A stretch of DNA of 64,000 nucleotides, from NCBI GenBank assembly GCA_963761305.1, contig CAVXGK010000002.1, positions 1,280,001 through 1,344,000 of the forward strand. The letters run 5' to 3'. This document shows positions 43,612 through 61,820 of this stretch, one piece after another; the first letter of the stretch is position 1, and each line of letters begins with the position of its first letter. The position numbers and the translations under genes were made by a program. This DNA comes from an uncultured Gemmatimonadaceae bacterium. Lineage in GTDB: Bacteria > Gemmatimonadota > Gemmatimonadetes > Gemmatimonadales > Gemmatimonadaceae. The notes beneath the pieces are model-generated. The model searched no databases and was not told the DNA's origin. It saw only the letters and a list, made by a program, of their open reading frames with translations.

Positions 43612-43833
43612 TTGCTTCGTATCACGCAGGAACGCGCCGAGCGCATCGCGAAGAGCCACGCGTGCGAGAACTGTGGCGAGTACAGTTATAAGAAGCTCAA
43701 GGTGAAACCGGCGCCGCCGACCACCGGTGAGCTCGCGTCGGTCAGGTGGATCGCCAACAAGGTGTGCGGCGTCTGCGGCATGGAGGTCGAGATGGGCATC
43801 GACGCCGAGGGCGAGATTATTTACGTGTCGTAG
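43612..43833 (+). CDS. Small zinc-ribbon-like protein
   Basis: CENC...CGVC pairs; follows the SPFH gene directly. Confidence 0.75.
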   Translation: MLRITQERAERIAKSHACENCGEYSYKKLKVKPAPPTTGELASVRWIANKVCGVCGMEVEMGIDAEGEIIYVS

Positions 43834-43868
43834 GACGGGTGGACGAGTGGACGGGTGGCGGTGGACCG
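43834..43868 (+). repeat. GGTGGACS octamer tandem repeat
   Basis: ggacgggtggacgagtggacgggtggcggtggaccg immediately after a stop codon. Confidence 0.6.
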
Positions 43869-44182: not shown

Positions 44183-44220
44183 CCACCGTCTACCGGTCCA
44201 GCGGTCCAGCGGTCCACCCG
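44183..44220 (-). repeat. GGTGGACC octamer tandem repeat (reverse orientation)
   Basis: ccaccgtctaccggtccagcggtccagcggtccacccg. Confidence 0.6.
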
Positions 44221-45814: not shown

Positions 45815-45846
45815 TCCACGGTCCACCGGTCCACCGGTCCACCGGC
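45815..45846 (-). repeat. GGTGGACC octamer tandem repeat
   Basis: tccacggtccaccggtccaccggtccaccgg. Confidence 0.65.
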
Positions 45847-53509: not shown

Positions 53510-53620
53510 CACTCCGGCGCCTTGCGAGGTGAACTCGCCGAGAGCATCCTTGCAGGCCTCGCCCCGGAACACGCACTCGCTTTCCGGTTCACCGGTCCAC
53601 CGGTCCACCCGTTGGTGCCA

Positions 53621-55408
53621 ATGAGATTTGGTTTCCGCCTTCCCCTCATCCTGGCTCTCGCCGGCGCCGCGACCGGCCTCGCGTGCTCGAGCGACGAGGA
53701 CGCGACCGATCCATCCGCGCCGATGAATCTCGAGATCTTTCTGACGCCGCCCGCAGTCCAGCTCGCGGTCGCCGACACGATCACGACGGCGAACAGTGTC
53801 AAGCTGATTCTGTCAGCGACGTCGCTCGGGTTTCCGGTCGTCACGCCGCACGCCGAATGGACCAGCTCGGATCGGACCGTCGTCATCGTCGACAGTACGG
53901 GATTGGTGCAGGCCGTGGGCTTGGGGCTCGCCACGGTCACGGCGCGTGTGAACGGTGAGAAGGCGCAAACGACGGTGAGCGTGGTACGGCGGGTCGTTTC
54001 CGTGACGCTCACGCCGCAGACGTTCCAAGGTCTCGTTGGCGACACAACGACAGTCGCGGCGAGCGCGGTCGATGCGCAGGGCTTGGCGGTGGGTGGAACG
54101 ACGTTCGCGTTCACGTCGACCGACCCGACCGCGGTGAGCGTGGTTCGAACCGGCAACCAGACGGCCAAGATCACGCTGCTCAAGCCGGGATCGGCTGGGG
54201 TGACCGTGGCTGCCGGCGGCCAGTCGGCGGCGACGTCGGTGACGTCGTTCTCGACGGATTTCACCAGCGCCGTCGCGACGAACGCGCCGACAGGGGCTTT
54301 GGTCCTCGCCGCCGGTCAAGATGCGACCTGCGGCATCATCGCGCTGGGTCGAAGCTTTTGTTTCGGCATACAACCCCCCGTTGGAATCGCGAAGGACTCG
54401 AGCTGCTTCAACGACCACCAGCCGGCAGGCCCGTTTCCCTGCACGCTCGTTCCGCTGCGCATCGCCGGCGCGCTGAGCTTTGCGTCGGTGAGCGTCGGGG
54501 ATTCAGTCGCCTGCGGTGTTACGACCGGGAATCAAGCCTATTGCTGGGGACTGCAGACGTATGGACAGCTCGGCAATGGCATCGCTACGACCGGAACGTC
54601 AGCGGCGCCGAATCTCGTGATCGGAGCGTCGTCGCGTTCCGCCGTGTTGTTGAGCCGCGTCTCGGCGGGACGAAATCACGCCTGCGGCCTAACGCCAAGC
54701 GGCGCCGCCCTCTGTTGGGGTCAAGACTCGACCTTCCAGCTCGGCACCGGCGATTCGCTCCTGGTGAACTCGAGCACGCCGATCCCGATCAAGAGCGGCG
54801 TGTCCTTCACGCAGATCTCCGCCGGTGGGAACCACACCTGCGCTTTGTCGAGTGGTGGCACGGCGGTGTGCTGGGGCGACAACACGCAGGGGCAGATTGG
54901 CATCGGAACCGACGGCAACGTCGTTGACACGCCCACGGCCGTCGCAGGCGTCTTCGCTCAAGTCTCGGCCGGCGGGTCACACACGTGCGCGCTTACGCCG
55001 GCCGGCGCAGCCTTCTGCTGGGGCTCGAACGACTCGGGGCAGGTCGGCAACGGAACGCAGACCGCGGCCACGACGCCCGTGGCCGTAACCGGCGGGTTCA
55101 CGTTCAAGGCGATTAGCGCGAGTCGATACGGCACGTGTGGCATCACGATCAACGGCGCCGCCGTCTGCTGGGGAAGCAACCAATACGCTCAGACGGGTTC
55201 CGGCTCGGTCAGCACGCCGAGACTCGTGCCAACTCCGGTGATTGGCGGGCACACTGATTTCGTTGCGATCGCGTCCGGAGTTCGGCACAATTGCGCGCTC
55301 GCAGCCAGTGGCGCGTTCTGTTGGGGCTCGAACGTCTTCGGCGCACTCGGGAATGAGTTACAGGCGATGATTCAGTTCACTCCCACCAAGACCGCGACCC
55401 CGCAGTAG
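53621..55408 (+). CDS. Lipoprotein with Ig-like (Big_2) domains and RCC1/BLIP-II repeats
   Basis: Lipobox GLAC, WTSSDRTVVIVDSTGLV, and repeated SAGxxHTCAL...CWGxNxxGQ. Confidence 0.92.
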   Translation: MRFGFRLPLILALAGAATGLACSSDEDATDPSAPMNLEIFLTPPAVQLAVADTITTANSVKLILSATSLGFPVVTPHAEWTSSDRTVVIVDSTGLVQAVGLGLATVTARVNGEKAQTTVSVVRRVVSVTLTPQTFQGLVGDTTTVAASAVDAQGLAVGGTTFAFTSTDPTAVSVVRTGNQTAKITLLKPGSAGVTVAAGGQSAATSVTSFSTDFTSAVATNAPTGALVLAAGQDATCGIIALGRSFCFGIQPPVGIAKDSSCFNDHQPAGPFPCTLVPLRIAGALSFASVSVGDSVACGVTTGNQAYCWGLQTYGQLGNGIATTGTSAAPNLVIGASSRSAVLLSRVSAGRNHACGLTPSGAALCWGQDSTFQLGTGDSLLVNSSTPIPIKSGVSFTQISAGGNHTCALSSGGTAVCWGDNTQGQIGIGTDGNVVDTPTAVAGVFAQVSAGGSHTCALTPAGAAFCWGSNDSGQVGNGTQTAATTPVAVTGGFTFKAISASRYGTCGITINGAAVCWGSNQYAQTGSGSVSTPRLVPTPVIGGHTDFVAIASGVRHNCALAASGAFCWGSNVFGALGNELQAMIQFTPTKTATPQ

Positions 55409-55591
55409 TAACGCCCGCTGGCGATTGGGCTCGAACTATTCGGCCCGACCATCCGTCAGTGAAAGCCGTGCAACGCCATCGCTCGGCGAGACGCCAGGCC
55501 GAAGTAAAGGTTGACTCTCGTGCCGATGCGGTCCGATGGAGTCGTCCAACGCGACTGAGTTCGGTCCGCCGACGATGGAGTTCGCTCCCTC

Positions 55592-55639
55592 GCTCCGTGA
55601 CTTCGGTCGTTAGCTCCGTGACTTCGGTCGTTAGCTCCG
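55592..55639. repeat. Exact 21-bp tandem repeat (2.3 copies) within a degenerate 21-bp array
   Basis: GCTCCGTGACTTCGGTCGTTA x2 + GCTCCG. The GA.TTCG core also occurs at 55556 and 55577. Confidence 0.85.
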
Positions 55640-56218
55640 ATTTTCGGCAGTCCGCAGCGAGCGATCGACGTGGGCTCGAGGCCGAGCGCATCGGCACGGG
55701 CCGAAACCACGGAGAGCATCGCTCGTCGGATCCGCGGGTCGTCGCGCGTTCCGGTGTTCAAATGTGGATTGTGGCCGGGAGGTGAGCGCGGTTCCACCGT
55801 CGGCGGCGAACGAAGCGTAGTCCGTCGTGCATCGACGCCGAGAGGACGCGAACTGAGGGCGGTCGTGCGTCGAGTGAACGCGGGCTGTCGACGACTGCTT
55901 CGAGCAGATGACGACGGAAACGTCGGGCGTTGACGACTAAGTTCGAGCGGCGTGGCGCGCACGCCACAGCGGTGCGAAGTGAATTCGCGTCGTGGTGAGT
56001 ACCCTTCGAGCGACGCCGGACTCACGGCGAGGACTCACGAGTTGAAATCGGGGATCGACGAGTTGGTCTCGCGATCGACGCGAGTTTTCGCCGACACATG
56101 GAACGTGAAGTCCGGCCGTGAAAGAGTGGCGTCAGTCATGCGACGCGTACGTTCGGGAATTTTCCACACGCATGCGCAGCGCGGTGGAGTGAATCGGCGG
56201 AGGCGGCGCGGGAATATC

Positions 56219-56285
56219 TGGACGTACGTGCGTCGATAGTGGATGTGCGTACGTGAACGATGGATGTGCGTGCGCACAGTCTGGT
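56219..56285. repeat. Degenerate 21-bp tandem repeat
   Basis: TGGA(C/T)GT(A/G)CGT units at 56219, 56240 and 56261, and TGGT at 56282. Confidence 0.7.
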
Positions 56286-56715
56286 CGGCCAGCGGACCGG
56301 GCGTGCATCCGCAGTGCGCGGCGAAGGCGGTTCCGCAACGCCCGCTATCACCGAGCTGCCGGTGAGATGCAGGGAAGCACGGCTGTCGAGCACTTCGGTG
56401 GTGCCGGCAAGCACTCGGCCGCAGGAGCCAGAATGCGTGCGAACTCCAGGTGACGGTGCGGTTCGGATCGAAGGGAGCGAGCGATCGGTCAATCGGCGCG
56501 GGGGCGCGGGCAACGCGCGGTTCAGCCGACCCGCGTGCACTGCCGCCGTCGGGCAAGACCAGCGTGTGCCGGGGCATTCGTCTTGGCGTCGACGGATGTG
56601 GCCCCGTCGCGCACATACATCAATGTCGCGGCAGCACCGTTTGCAGCGTGTGATCGAAGCTTGCGACCCGAGCGCGGCGCGATGACGACGCAGGTTAGTC
56701 GATGCTCGCGAGGGA

Positions 56716-57182
56716 AAGTCGGACGCCGGACATGATAAGTCCGGCGTCCGCACGAGAAAGTCGAACGCTCGATGATGCAAGTCTGTCGCCCGGACATCCC
56801 AGTCGTGCGGAACCGACGGAAAATGGCTTGGGAGGCTGGCGAAGTCTGGCGCGGGCAATGCGAAATGACTCACTGCCCGAACGAAATCGCGTGACCACCG
56901 GGAGAAGTCGGAGGCCGGGCGAGGCAAGTGATTCGCGCACGGCCGCTTGTCGTCGTCGCGGTGCGGGATATCGAGCAATCGCCGAGGCAGGTCGTTCGAT
57001 GTTCGGTGGAAATCGGCCGCCCGGAGCGTAAAGGCGTCCGCGCGTTCGGGAATCCTCGCCGACCCGGAGTTCAAGTGAAGCGCCGGAGCGGACAAGCCGG
57101 GCGAGCGCGCAACAATGTCCCGCCGCGAACCCATCCAGTCGACCGACGTTCAAGGCAGGTCGTCCGTCGGGCGACGCAACTC
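56716..57182. repeat. 23-unit array with exact 21-bp period: AAGTC-like core + variable 16-nt spacer
   Basis: Cores at 56716+21n: AAGTC x4, CAGTC, AAATG, AAGTC, AAATG, AAATC, AAGTC, AAGTG ... CAGTC, AGGTC, AACTC. Confidence 0.8.
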
Positions 57183-57313
57183 AAACGAGCGGCCGTCGCG
57201 GATCACTGGCATCGTCAACGAGCAGCGACATCGCTGAGTCGGGAAAAGCAAAGTCGGCGGACGCAGGAACCTTGCACGCCGCTGGTGTATCCAGCGCGTC
57301 CACCATCCCAACG

Positions 57314-58141
57314 ATGACCGCCGGAGGGTATGTGCGCTACCGCGGTTCGATCCTCGTCGCCGTCGTCGTTCCCTCGCTTCTCGCGGCGCAAGCGACGCCC
57401 GCCAGCGGGCCGCGGAGCGACGTCATCCTATCGTTCGAGAACTTCGCGGACCTCTTCGGCAGCCGCCTCGTCGCGGCCTTCGATTCGATTCCGGCAGCGC
57501 GCTACGACTATCGACCGACAACCGCACAGCAGACGATCGGCTACATCGCGCAGCACCTCGAGAACGCGAACTACAGTCTCTGCGAGAGCTTCGCCGACAT
57601 AAAGCATCGGCGAACGCGAAAGGACTCGCTGCCGGACACCGTGAAAGCGCGTTGGCCGAAGGACACGCTCGTCGCTCGGCTAGCGGCATCGCTCCGCTTC
57701 TGCGACACGACCCTCGAGCGTGTGAGCCAACTGCAGTCCGGGGCGCTCGCGAGCTCGCTGCTCGCGTTCGAGACCGACTTGGCCGAGCACTACAGCCAGT
57801 TATCGGCGTACATGAGACTGCTCGGCATCGTTCCGCCATCGGCGCTCCCGCCTGTGCCGCGCCAGACAATCGAGCTGCGGGCCTCCGCCCTCGCGCCGCT
57901 GGTCGGCGTCTATCAGATCGTCGCCGGGCGGCGACTCGACGTGACGATGCATGACGGAATGCTCTTCGTGAAATCCTCAGGTGGCGGCGCGACGGTGCGA
58001 CTCTGGCCCGTGGGCCCGAACGATTTCTTCGTGAACGAGGTGGACGCACAGATCGCCTTCACCCGCGATTCGCGCGGCGCGGTCGCTGGGCTCGTCGTGC
58101 ACCAATACGGTCGTGACCGGCTGGCGGCGCGGGTGAGATGA
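57314..58141 (+). CDS. Exported DinB-family protein with C-terminal DUF3471-like domain
   Basis: YDYRPT, IAQHL and EHYSQLSAYMRLLGIVPPS, followed by LVGVY...F.RD..G.V.GL. Confidence 0.85.
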   Translation: MTAGGYVRYRGSILVAVVVPSLLAAQATPASGPRSDVILSFENFADLFGSRLVAAFDSIPAARYDYRPTTAQQTIGYIAQHLENANYSLCESFADIKHRRTRKDSLPDTVKARWPKDTLVARLAASLRFCDTTLERVSQLQSGALASSLLAFETDLAEHYSQLSAYMRLLGIVPPSALPPVPRQTIELRASALAPLVGVYQIVAGRRLDVTMHDGMLFVKSSGGGATVRLWPVGPNDFFVNEVDAQIAFTRDSRGAVAGLVVHQYGRDRLAARVR

Positions 58142-61684: not shown

Positions 61685-61760
61685 GGTGGCGGGTGGACGG
61701 GTGGACCGGGTGGACCGGGACGGTGGACCGGTGGACCGGTGGACCGGTGGACCGGTGGAC
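61685..61760 (+). repeat. GGTGGACC octamer microsatellite (~9 copies)
   Basis: ggtggacgggtggaccgggtggaccgggacggtggaccggtggacc... right after the permease stop codon. Confidence 0.85.
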
Positions 61761-61820
61761 AGGTTAGAATAGCGCGCGATCATTCAACGAACCGCTATCC
61801 GCGCTGAGACCAGTCGACAC

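Follow-up and report, generated by a model that had tools for sequence, protein, structure and literature searches.

Organization of the Locus

The window, i.e., the whole 64,000-nucleotide stretch of DNA analyzed here, belongs to the 5.2-Mb genome (G000) of an uncultured Gemmatimonadaceae bacterium. It contains, between two host genes, a gap occupied by elements with a period of 21 bp, and the array of 23 such units on the minus strand is the target of this analysis (Table 1). No empty-site locus was found in the genus, where the two flanking genes are not neighbors. A match to the RCC1-repeat gene in another genome (G024, locus L126, G024:C24) contains two stops inside the matched stretch.

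Table 1. Features of the target gap and of its flanks (positions in the window).
Feature	Position	Strand	Remarks
Left flank, host gene with Ig-like domain and RCC1 repeats	53621..55408	+	Pfam; orthologue neighborhoods without arrays
Second 21-bp-periodic element	55540..56230	+	GAGTT/GACTT cores; opposite orientation, same gap as the target
332-codon open frame with D/H-F/L heptads	56136..57134	-	Considered a side effect of the repeat rather than a gene
Putative decayed proximal arm	56150..56692	-	Collinear with the sister leader; ends at the sister's ribosome site/start codon; no gene follows
Junction motif between both arms	56693..56719	-	Core CCTCGCGAG; common to C2:1694808 (gene-bearing sister) and to the gene-less copy C2:2696512
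Target array, putative distal arm, 23 units of 21 bp	56716..57198	-	Core (G/C)ACTT on the minus strand, i.e., AAGT(C/G) on the plus strand
Right flank, host gene with DinB_2 and DUF3471	57314..58141	+	Pfam; 14/14 homologue loci in the genus without period-21 array

Within the second element are a GTGGCGCGCACGCCAC palindrome and a GTTGAAATGTGGATT block that is conserved, and gene-less paralogues of the element are located at C2:235018, C2:2440200, C2:655370-655994, C1:639880, and C2:588769. It matched none of 135 leaders linked to the helical-protein gene described below.

The 21-bp Array

The first-pass annotation had reported 23 consecutive units at exact 21-bp spacing, and autocorrelation confirmed this. 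The identity at lags 21, 42, and 63 was 0.426, 0.442, and 0.433, respectively, vs. 0.27-0.28 in shuffled sequences (z 7.0-8.2; 0/2000), the controls being 2000 mononucleotide and 2000 triplet shuffles. The period-21 signal, on which that annotation had made its reading depend, is thus significant, and no rise in identity was observed at lags 7, 10, 11, 14, 20, and 22. The array is the strongest period-21 window within the 64 kb and is not detected by TRF. Its last unit starts at 57178, the exact register is kept throughout, and together with the proximal element it extends approximately 550 bp past the stretch annotated before.

The core columns are occupied by A in 20, A in 17, G in 16, T in 20, and C in 18 of the 23 units, the poor units being those at 57052 and 56947. 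The conserved cores of the earlier description therefore hold, but its "unrelated" spacers do not: their mean identity is 0.36, CG is found at unit columns 9-10 in 19/23 units, and internal duplication is present among them. Its view that this is not an ordinary decayed tandem repeat was right.

A Genome-Wide Array Family and Its Gene

The target is a member of a genome-wide family of arrays tied to a gene for a helical protein. A scan of the genome detected 70 period-21 clusters, which merged into about 54 loci, nearly all located between genes as called in this analysis. A four-unit SAYTT pattern was found at 20 loci with a period of 21, vs. 0-4 with periods of 15, 18, 20, 22, 24, and 27. 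Thirteen intact copies of the helical-protein gene, one truncated copy, and faint remnants are present, and 10 of the 14 BLAST matches lie within 500 bp of an array. Of the array loci, 28/54 are gene-linked (9 with an intact gene, 6 with a remnant, and 13 with a leader homologous to a gene-linked one), and 26/54, the target among them, have no BLAST link to the gene.

As a rule, the array is located upstream of the gene. A period-21 signal was detected there in 39/48 loci, vs. 4/46 downstream (4% at random), and the best period was 21 or 42 in 60/76 upstream vs. 15/70 downstream regions. The unit consensus is unrelated between gene-linked loci, and the commonest phased trimers among the 135 leaders are CAC (26) and GAC (23). 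The gene itself is patchy, being found in 19/31 genomes of the genus (0-27 matches per genome), 8/61 of the family, and 58/301 of the phylum, a tally that includes the unpublished genome G329. The density of the array pattern tracks the number of gene matches (rho 0.49) over 77 genomes, among which kin are not independent and from which G000, G047, and G072 were left out.

Among the 147 nearest neighbors of the gene (88 upstream, 59 downstream), sigma-70-family factors account for 20 of the 88 upstream ones. Neither Cas, transposase, or integrase by Pfam, nor a recurring nuclease partner, nor Rep, ParM/TubZ, or an enhancer-binding ATPase was found among these neighbors. Uma2-family putative endonuclease genes adjoin four cassette loci (L038, L056, L067, and L075). 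No terminal repeats or target duplications were seen by eye at copy boundaries, and one query did not find the helical protein in phage, plasmid, and viral collections. No description of the array-plus-gene module was found in the literature searched, from which subscription journals were mostly absent.

The Linked Helical Protein

The linked protein is composed of approximately 215 amino acids, is basic, and is predicted to be all-helical; 4366 clusters (50% identity) were retrieved at E<=0.001, and a language-model search found look-alikes in Acidobacteriota, Bacteroidota, and Gemmatimonadota. The net charge is positive in 59/60 sequences, with a median of +10, which falls in the top 4% of the genome's proteins, and Arg/Lys residues are conserved. 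The gene is under purifying selection (pN/pS 0.07-0.39 in gene pairs). In the AlphaFold model (pLDDT 92) two long helices comprise residues 33-88 and 137-190; from this predicted, elongated fold, 54-56 residues would span approximately 80 A, compared with approximately 71 A for 21 bp by our own arithmetic.

Foldseek gave no match at E<=0.001, and the best VIA match (Z 9.9, rmsd 3.3, 107 aligned) was to generic helical bundles. No Pfam transposase matched the protein, membership in a known family could not be assigned, and an internal repeat is weak (probability 8%). The nearest named families are PQLLE (NCBIfam NF052641) and DUF6261 (PF19775), which resemble it in length. PQLLE weakly matched 4/60 proteins at E<=0.05 (best E 1.7e-5), the first member scoring 23.6 bits against a cut-off of 80, and no protein in the genome exceeded this cut-off. 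PF19775 matched 0/60 linked proteins and none in the genome; a DUF6261 cluster lay near the linked protein in the language-model search (score 0.87).

A Two-Armed Sister Locus

The upstream region of gene C2:1695303 is two-armed and consists of approximately 21 (G/C)ACTT units, a junction, approximately 480 bp with CACG cores, and a ribosome site. The target very probably belongs to the subfamily of this sister, judging from the following comparisons. With a matrix trained solely on the sister array (C2:1694387, a two-armed array whose gene is intact), 22/23 target units scored (0/500 shuffles). The junction pattern occurs at 3 sites with <=2 mismatches in 401 genomes; it was derived from the target and the sister, whose matches are consequently not independent. 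A collection of genome contigs gave 3 unrelated matches to it, and metagenomes gave none. The distal (G/C)ACTT arm is phased in 7/7 other gene-linked loci, from several genomes, that were assigned to the subfamily in this analysis.

Past the target junction, the next 620 bp can be aligned collinearly with the sister as far as its ribosome site; the score (z=6.8) exceeded those of 100 shuffles. Residual NACG cores in 21-bp register are located at 56650, 56608, 56566, 56272, 56251, and 56230, and [CTG]ACG occurs 6/15 times in one phase (p=0.0008, one of three patterns being significant). With an independent matrix the proximal phase was equalled by 69/500 shuffles. Against the 135 leaders, the two best matches of the proximal part were the sister and L027, which ranks among the two closest relatives of the sister's protein, the score against the sister being only about 2 sd above unrelated leaders. 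BLAST linked the target to no gene-bearing leader, a subfamily profile built without its own copies missed it, and a second profile search returned no matches. No gene remnant was found in the target gap. The target is most likely an orphan distal arm whose proximal arm has decayed and from which the helical-protein gene is absent.

The sister has itself been copied. A 933-bp copy at C2:2696032-2696964 is 88% identical, gap-free, and ends four codons into the gene. The sister protein had no close match in 250 genomes of the family, and a metagenome protein search gave one 64% relative of its gene, with 310 bp of upstream sequence only.

Further two-armed leaders, with up to approximately 22 phased CACG units, were observed at L027, L035, L163, L172, L174, L181, and C2:331621 of G000. 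In L172, L174, and L181, the distal arm ends at or close to an ATTAT(A/G) stretch, which reads as a -10-like hexamer on the opposite strand. Gene-less (G/C)ACTT arrays are also located in G000 at C2:798096-799255, which ends beside an apparent tRNA gene on the other strand (judged by eye), and at C2:2927584-2928905.

Coding Potential of the Array

The array has most likely no protein-coding role. The first-pass annotation reported stops in the frames it named; at least one stop is found in each of the six frames over 56701-57193; the TGA at 57150-57152 is matched without difference by one short-read contig, possibly from the same sample. That annotation had also offered a decayed heptad-repeat gene as an explanation. 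In this form, the array would encode, or once have encoded, a D/H-F/L-x5 heptad peptide that is translated ahead of the helical gene, and a few observations point that way: the core translates into a polar-hydrophobic pattern, two strains keep the 332-codon frame open, and an open frame of some kind occurs in 31/51 arrays, where column shuffles predict 24. Plain in-frame heptads precede the helical domain in two database proteins (P0069 and P0118); in these and in P0153 the upstream sequence was called in frame with this domain, and the calls are probably over-long.

Selection at the codon level is absent. Between the sister pair, 63/441 substitutions are distributed as 21/18/24 by codon position, pN/pS is 0.69 in the heptad frame and 0.69-1.3 over six frames, vs. 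0.07-0.39 in six gene pairs, and both sister copies have several stops. The codon-position check proposed earlier thus gave no sign of purifying selection on the minus frame. The 332-codon frame has a coding score of -0.43, whereas 99% of the 2124 called genes exceed 0.09, and Pfam gave no match to it. No homologues of the 56694-57149 frame were found. The 56139-57134 frame matched itself and one close-relative copy (P0215) only, where homologues under purifying selection had been named as what would make it an ordinary repeat protein. P0215 differs from the target frame at 45 of 370 codons with no gap and one stop difference; by BLOSUM its differences are near random (-0.59 vs. -0.76), with a probability of 0.26 that no new stop would arise. 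A DNA search of 40 relatives gave short, weak matches only. No codon bias was detected when the leaders were pooled (p=0.86), 0/14 small leader indels are divisible by 3, and open frames are divided into 24 sense and 19 antisense. We therefore disfavor the heptad gene and consider an encoded peptide quite improbable.

Guide-Array and RNA-Level Explanations

CRISPR repeats are conserved over about 23-50 bp, their spacers correspond to foreign DNA, and cas genes adjoin them. The conserved core here is 5 bp, and a CRISPR array, already dismissed in the first annotation, was rejected: no cas genes were found nearby, and the spacers gave no match to phage and plasmid sequences, a search of weak power with 16-nt spacers. 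More broadly, an array of guides or templated spacers in the manner of CRISPR or TIGR would agree with the short core and the unique spacers of fixed length, and it is far-fetched, since the spacers are internally duplicated and share CG, no recurring Cas or nuclease partner adjoins the gene, and spacer matches in the genome are at chance level (23 vs. 12-20 shuffled). The templated cassette array proposed at first has, with these matches, no support.

A structured RNA, another of the original proposals, was not supported either. The fold z of the two arms of the target is -1.68 and +1.38, the mean over 49 arrays is -0.3, and Rfam gave no match. A different possibility at the RNA level is a lattice in which the array is a long leader or a stand-alone transcript and the basic protein assembles on it every 21 nt; TRAP and Csr repeats are models of this kind.

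The promoters bear on this question. The consensus of sigma-54 promoters is GG-N10-GC. In array family f2, 22/24 loci have a TGGCAC..GC sigma-54-type site at -95 to -140. In 20/24 (4 weak), the best periodic segment stops before the best such site is reached, so that the array would lie outside the mRNA there. In family f1, to which the target belongs, no sigma-54 site was found near the gene in 111 loci, and none in the target. Many f1 loci have a conserved, promoter-like TAAGTAGAGGG motif 480-810 bp upstream, and the array lies between this motif and the ribosome site, so that it may be transcribed. Neither a sigma-70 promoter nor a terminator was found in the target gap.

An RNA lattice would agree with this f1 arrangement, with the basic linked protein, and with the gene-sense strand, which is richer in C than in G in 40/49 arrays and is unfolded. 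The f2 arrangement, the absence of a fold signal and of an Rfam match, and the equality of 21 bp with two turns of B-DNA speak against it. The sigma-54-type placement in f2, set against the f1 pattern, favors a docking lattice on DNA, and we regard an RNA lattice as unlikely.

TAAGTAGAGGG-like motifs also occur in pairs that face outward and are separated by 140-435 bp. Such pairs often lie where a sigma-70-family gene is followed by an array, between the two, and might represent a promoter or an element end. In G000 such pairs are located at C1:192033/192175, C1:1083414/1083574, C2:601978/602158, and C2:1923627/1924061.

Indels and Possible Selection on Phase

Large indels in the leaders were within 1 nt of a multiple of 21 in 16/18 cases, and none measured 3-18 nt, compared with 3/10 upstream (16 disjoint close pairs; a single pair with poor chaining contributed three of the large events). 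Any tandem repeat with this unit length would be expected to show indels of 21n. Slips of 1-2 nt were not clearly suppressed (leaders, 14 per 415 substitutions; upstream sequence, 9 per 408), and gene-linked arrays contain 0-3 one-base shifts each (8 loci). The close relative differs from the target at 7/200 codons over distal arm plus junction and at 38/170 over the rest, with no frame shift, which suggests either continuing constraint or a recombination mosaic.

A functionless or selfish minisatellite would account for part of this: cassette copying would generate 21-bp duplications, which drift, and the target would be debris. The many orphan arrays and remnants, the patchy gene, the slips at background rate, and the near-saturated spacers are consistent with it. 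The same period is nevertheless kept by unrelated units in 60/76 loci, and this constancy of one period across unrelated unit sequences is the strongest argument that phase is selected. In addition, given its divergence, the target should contain about 6-9 phase breaks and contains none, although the target was chosen for its kept phase, and the distal arm is better conserved than its flank in the close relative. A minisatellite is thus rather improbable, less so than a coding origin.

A Proposed Phased Docking Lattice and Its Relation to Known Systems

The phased protein-binding scaffold was one of four options in the first-pass annotation and is the best supported of them, as a putative assignment. 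We give an even chance to the following reading: the array is non-coding and forms the distal arm of the two-armed, 21-bp-phased upstream region of a cassette, the gene being missing here, and this region is a DNA lattice that offers docking every two helical turns. The cassette protein, or a partner, would bind cooperatively to the phased cores along a single face of the helix, and the bound protein would control the cassette promoter or organize its DNA. Spacing would matter more than sequence, so that cores would drift between subfamilies and units would come and go in blocks of 21. Copies that lack the gene, like the target, may stem from gene decay or partial copying, and protein from the 13 intact genes may still bind them.

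A more far-reaching possibility, which we hold to be doubtful, is an undescribed self-spreading two-part element. The rod-shaped basic protein would be a ruler that polymerizes every 21 bp and reads spacing, the cassette and the gene-less arrays would spread without a transposase, and the orphan arrays would be live lattices.

Phased protein-binding arrays are known from plasmid iterons, the parC/tubC centromeres, and the upstream activator sites of sigma-54 promoters. In iteron and centromere arrays, the repeats are bound in helical phase by a cognate protein, to which the charge of the linked protein and its linkage to the arrays would here be an indirect pointer only. The present arrays resemble these systems in being short, helically phased sites upstream of a gene for a basic protein; a sigma-54-type site downstream of the array was seen in f2 but not in the f1 loci or the target. 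They are unlike these systems in that the core is 4-5 bp and differs by subfamily, 20-45 units are present, and the arrays are chromosomal and multicopy.

The likeness to REPIN-RAYT systems lies, as far as the accessible text on them goes, in the many dispersed, extragenic, non-coding elements, a few of them beside the cognate gene, and in their patchy occurrence in relatives (PMC3116915). In that text REPINs are inverted REP doublets that form hairpins, whereas a direct 21-bp lattice without a fold signal (z -1.68 in one arm of the target; mean -0.3 over 49 arrays) is found here. The same text links them to a tyrosine transposase, and the protein linked here has no transposase match and no specific structural match; no tyrosine transposase of the REPIN-RAYT type was found among the 147 nearest neighbors. 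In Geobacter, direct repeats of intergenic, multicopy families (6-42 nt in G. bemidjiensis) were proposed to be regulator-binding sites (PMC2996986, PMC2700814). As described in the accessible parts of these papers, they show neither a 21-bp lattice nor a link to a helical-protein gene, and the supplementary alignments could hold similar arrays.

Through these arrays, long intergenic gaps that lacked an explanation, dozens in each genome and about 54 here, are tied to a single large protein family, and the arrays allow a direct test of a protein-DNA code, as the period is kept while the sequence turns over. A lattice read by its spacing would be new, as would spread without a recognizable transposase, if true. 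For genome annotation, 21-bp arrays carry a warning, since gene calls on them produce heptad ORFs that look convincing but are false.

Another kind of repeat was observed in the window, namely short 8-bp tandem arrays of the GGTGGACC type at 61692-61764, 45815-45845, 43833-43866, 44194-44216, and 53584-53609, some of which are located at gene ends.
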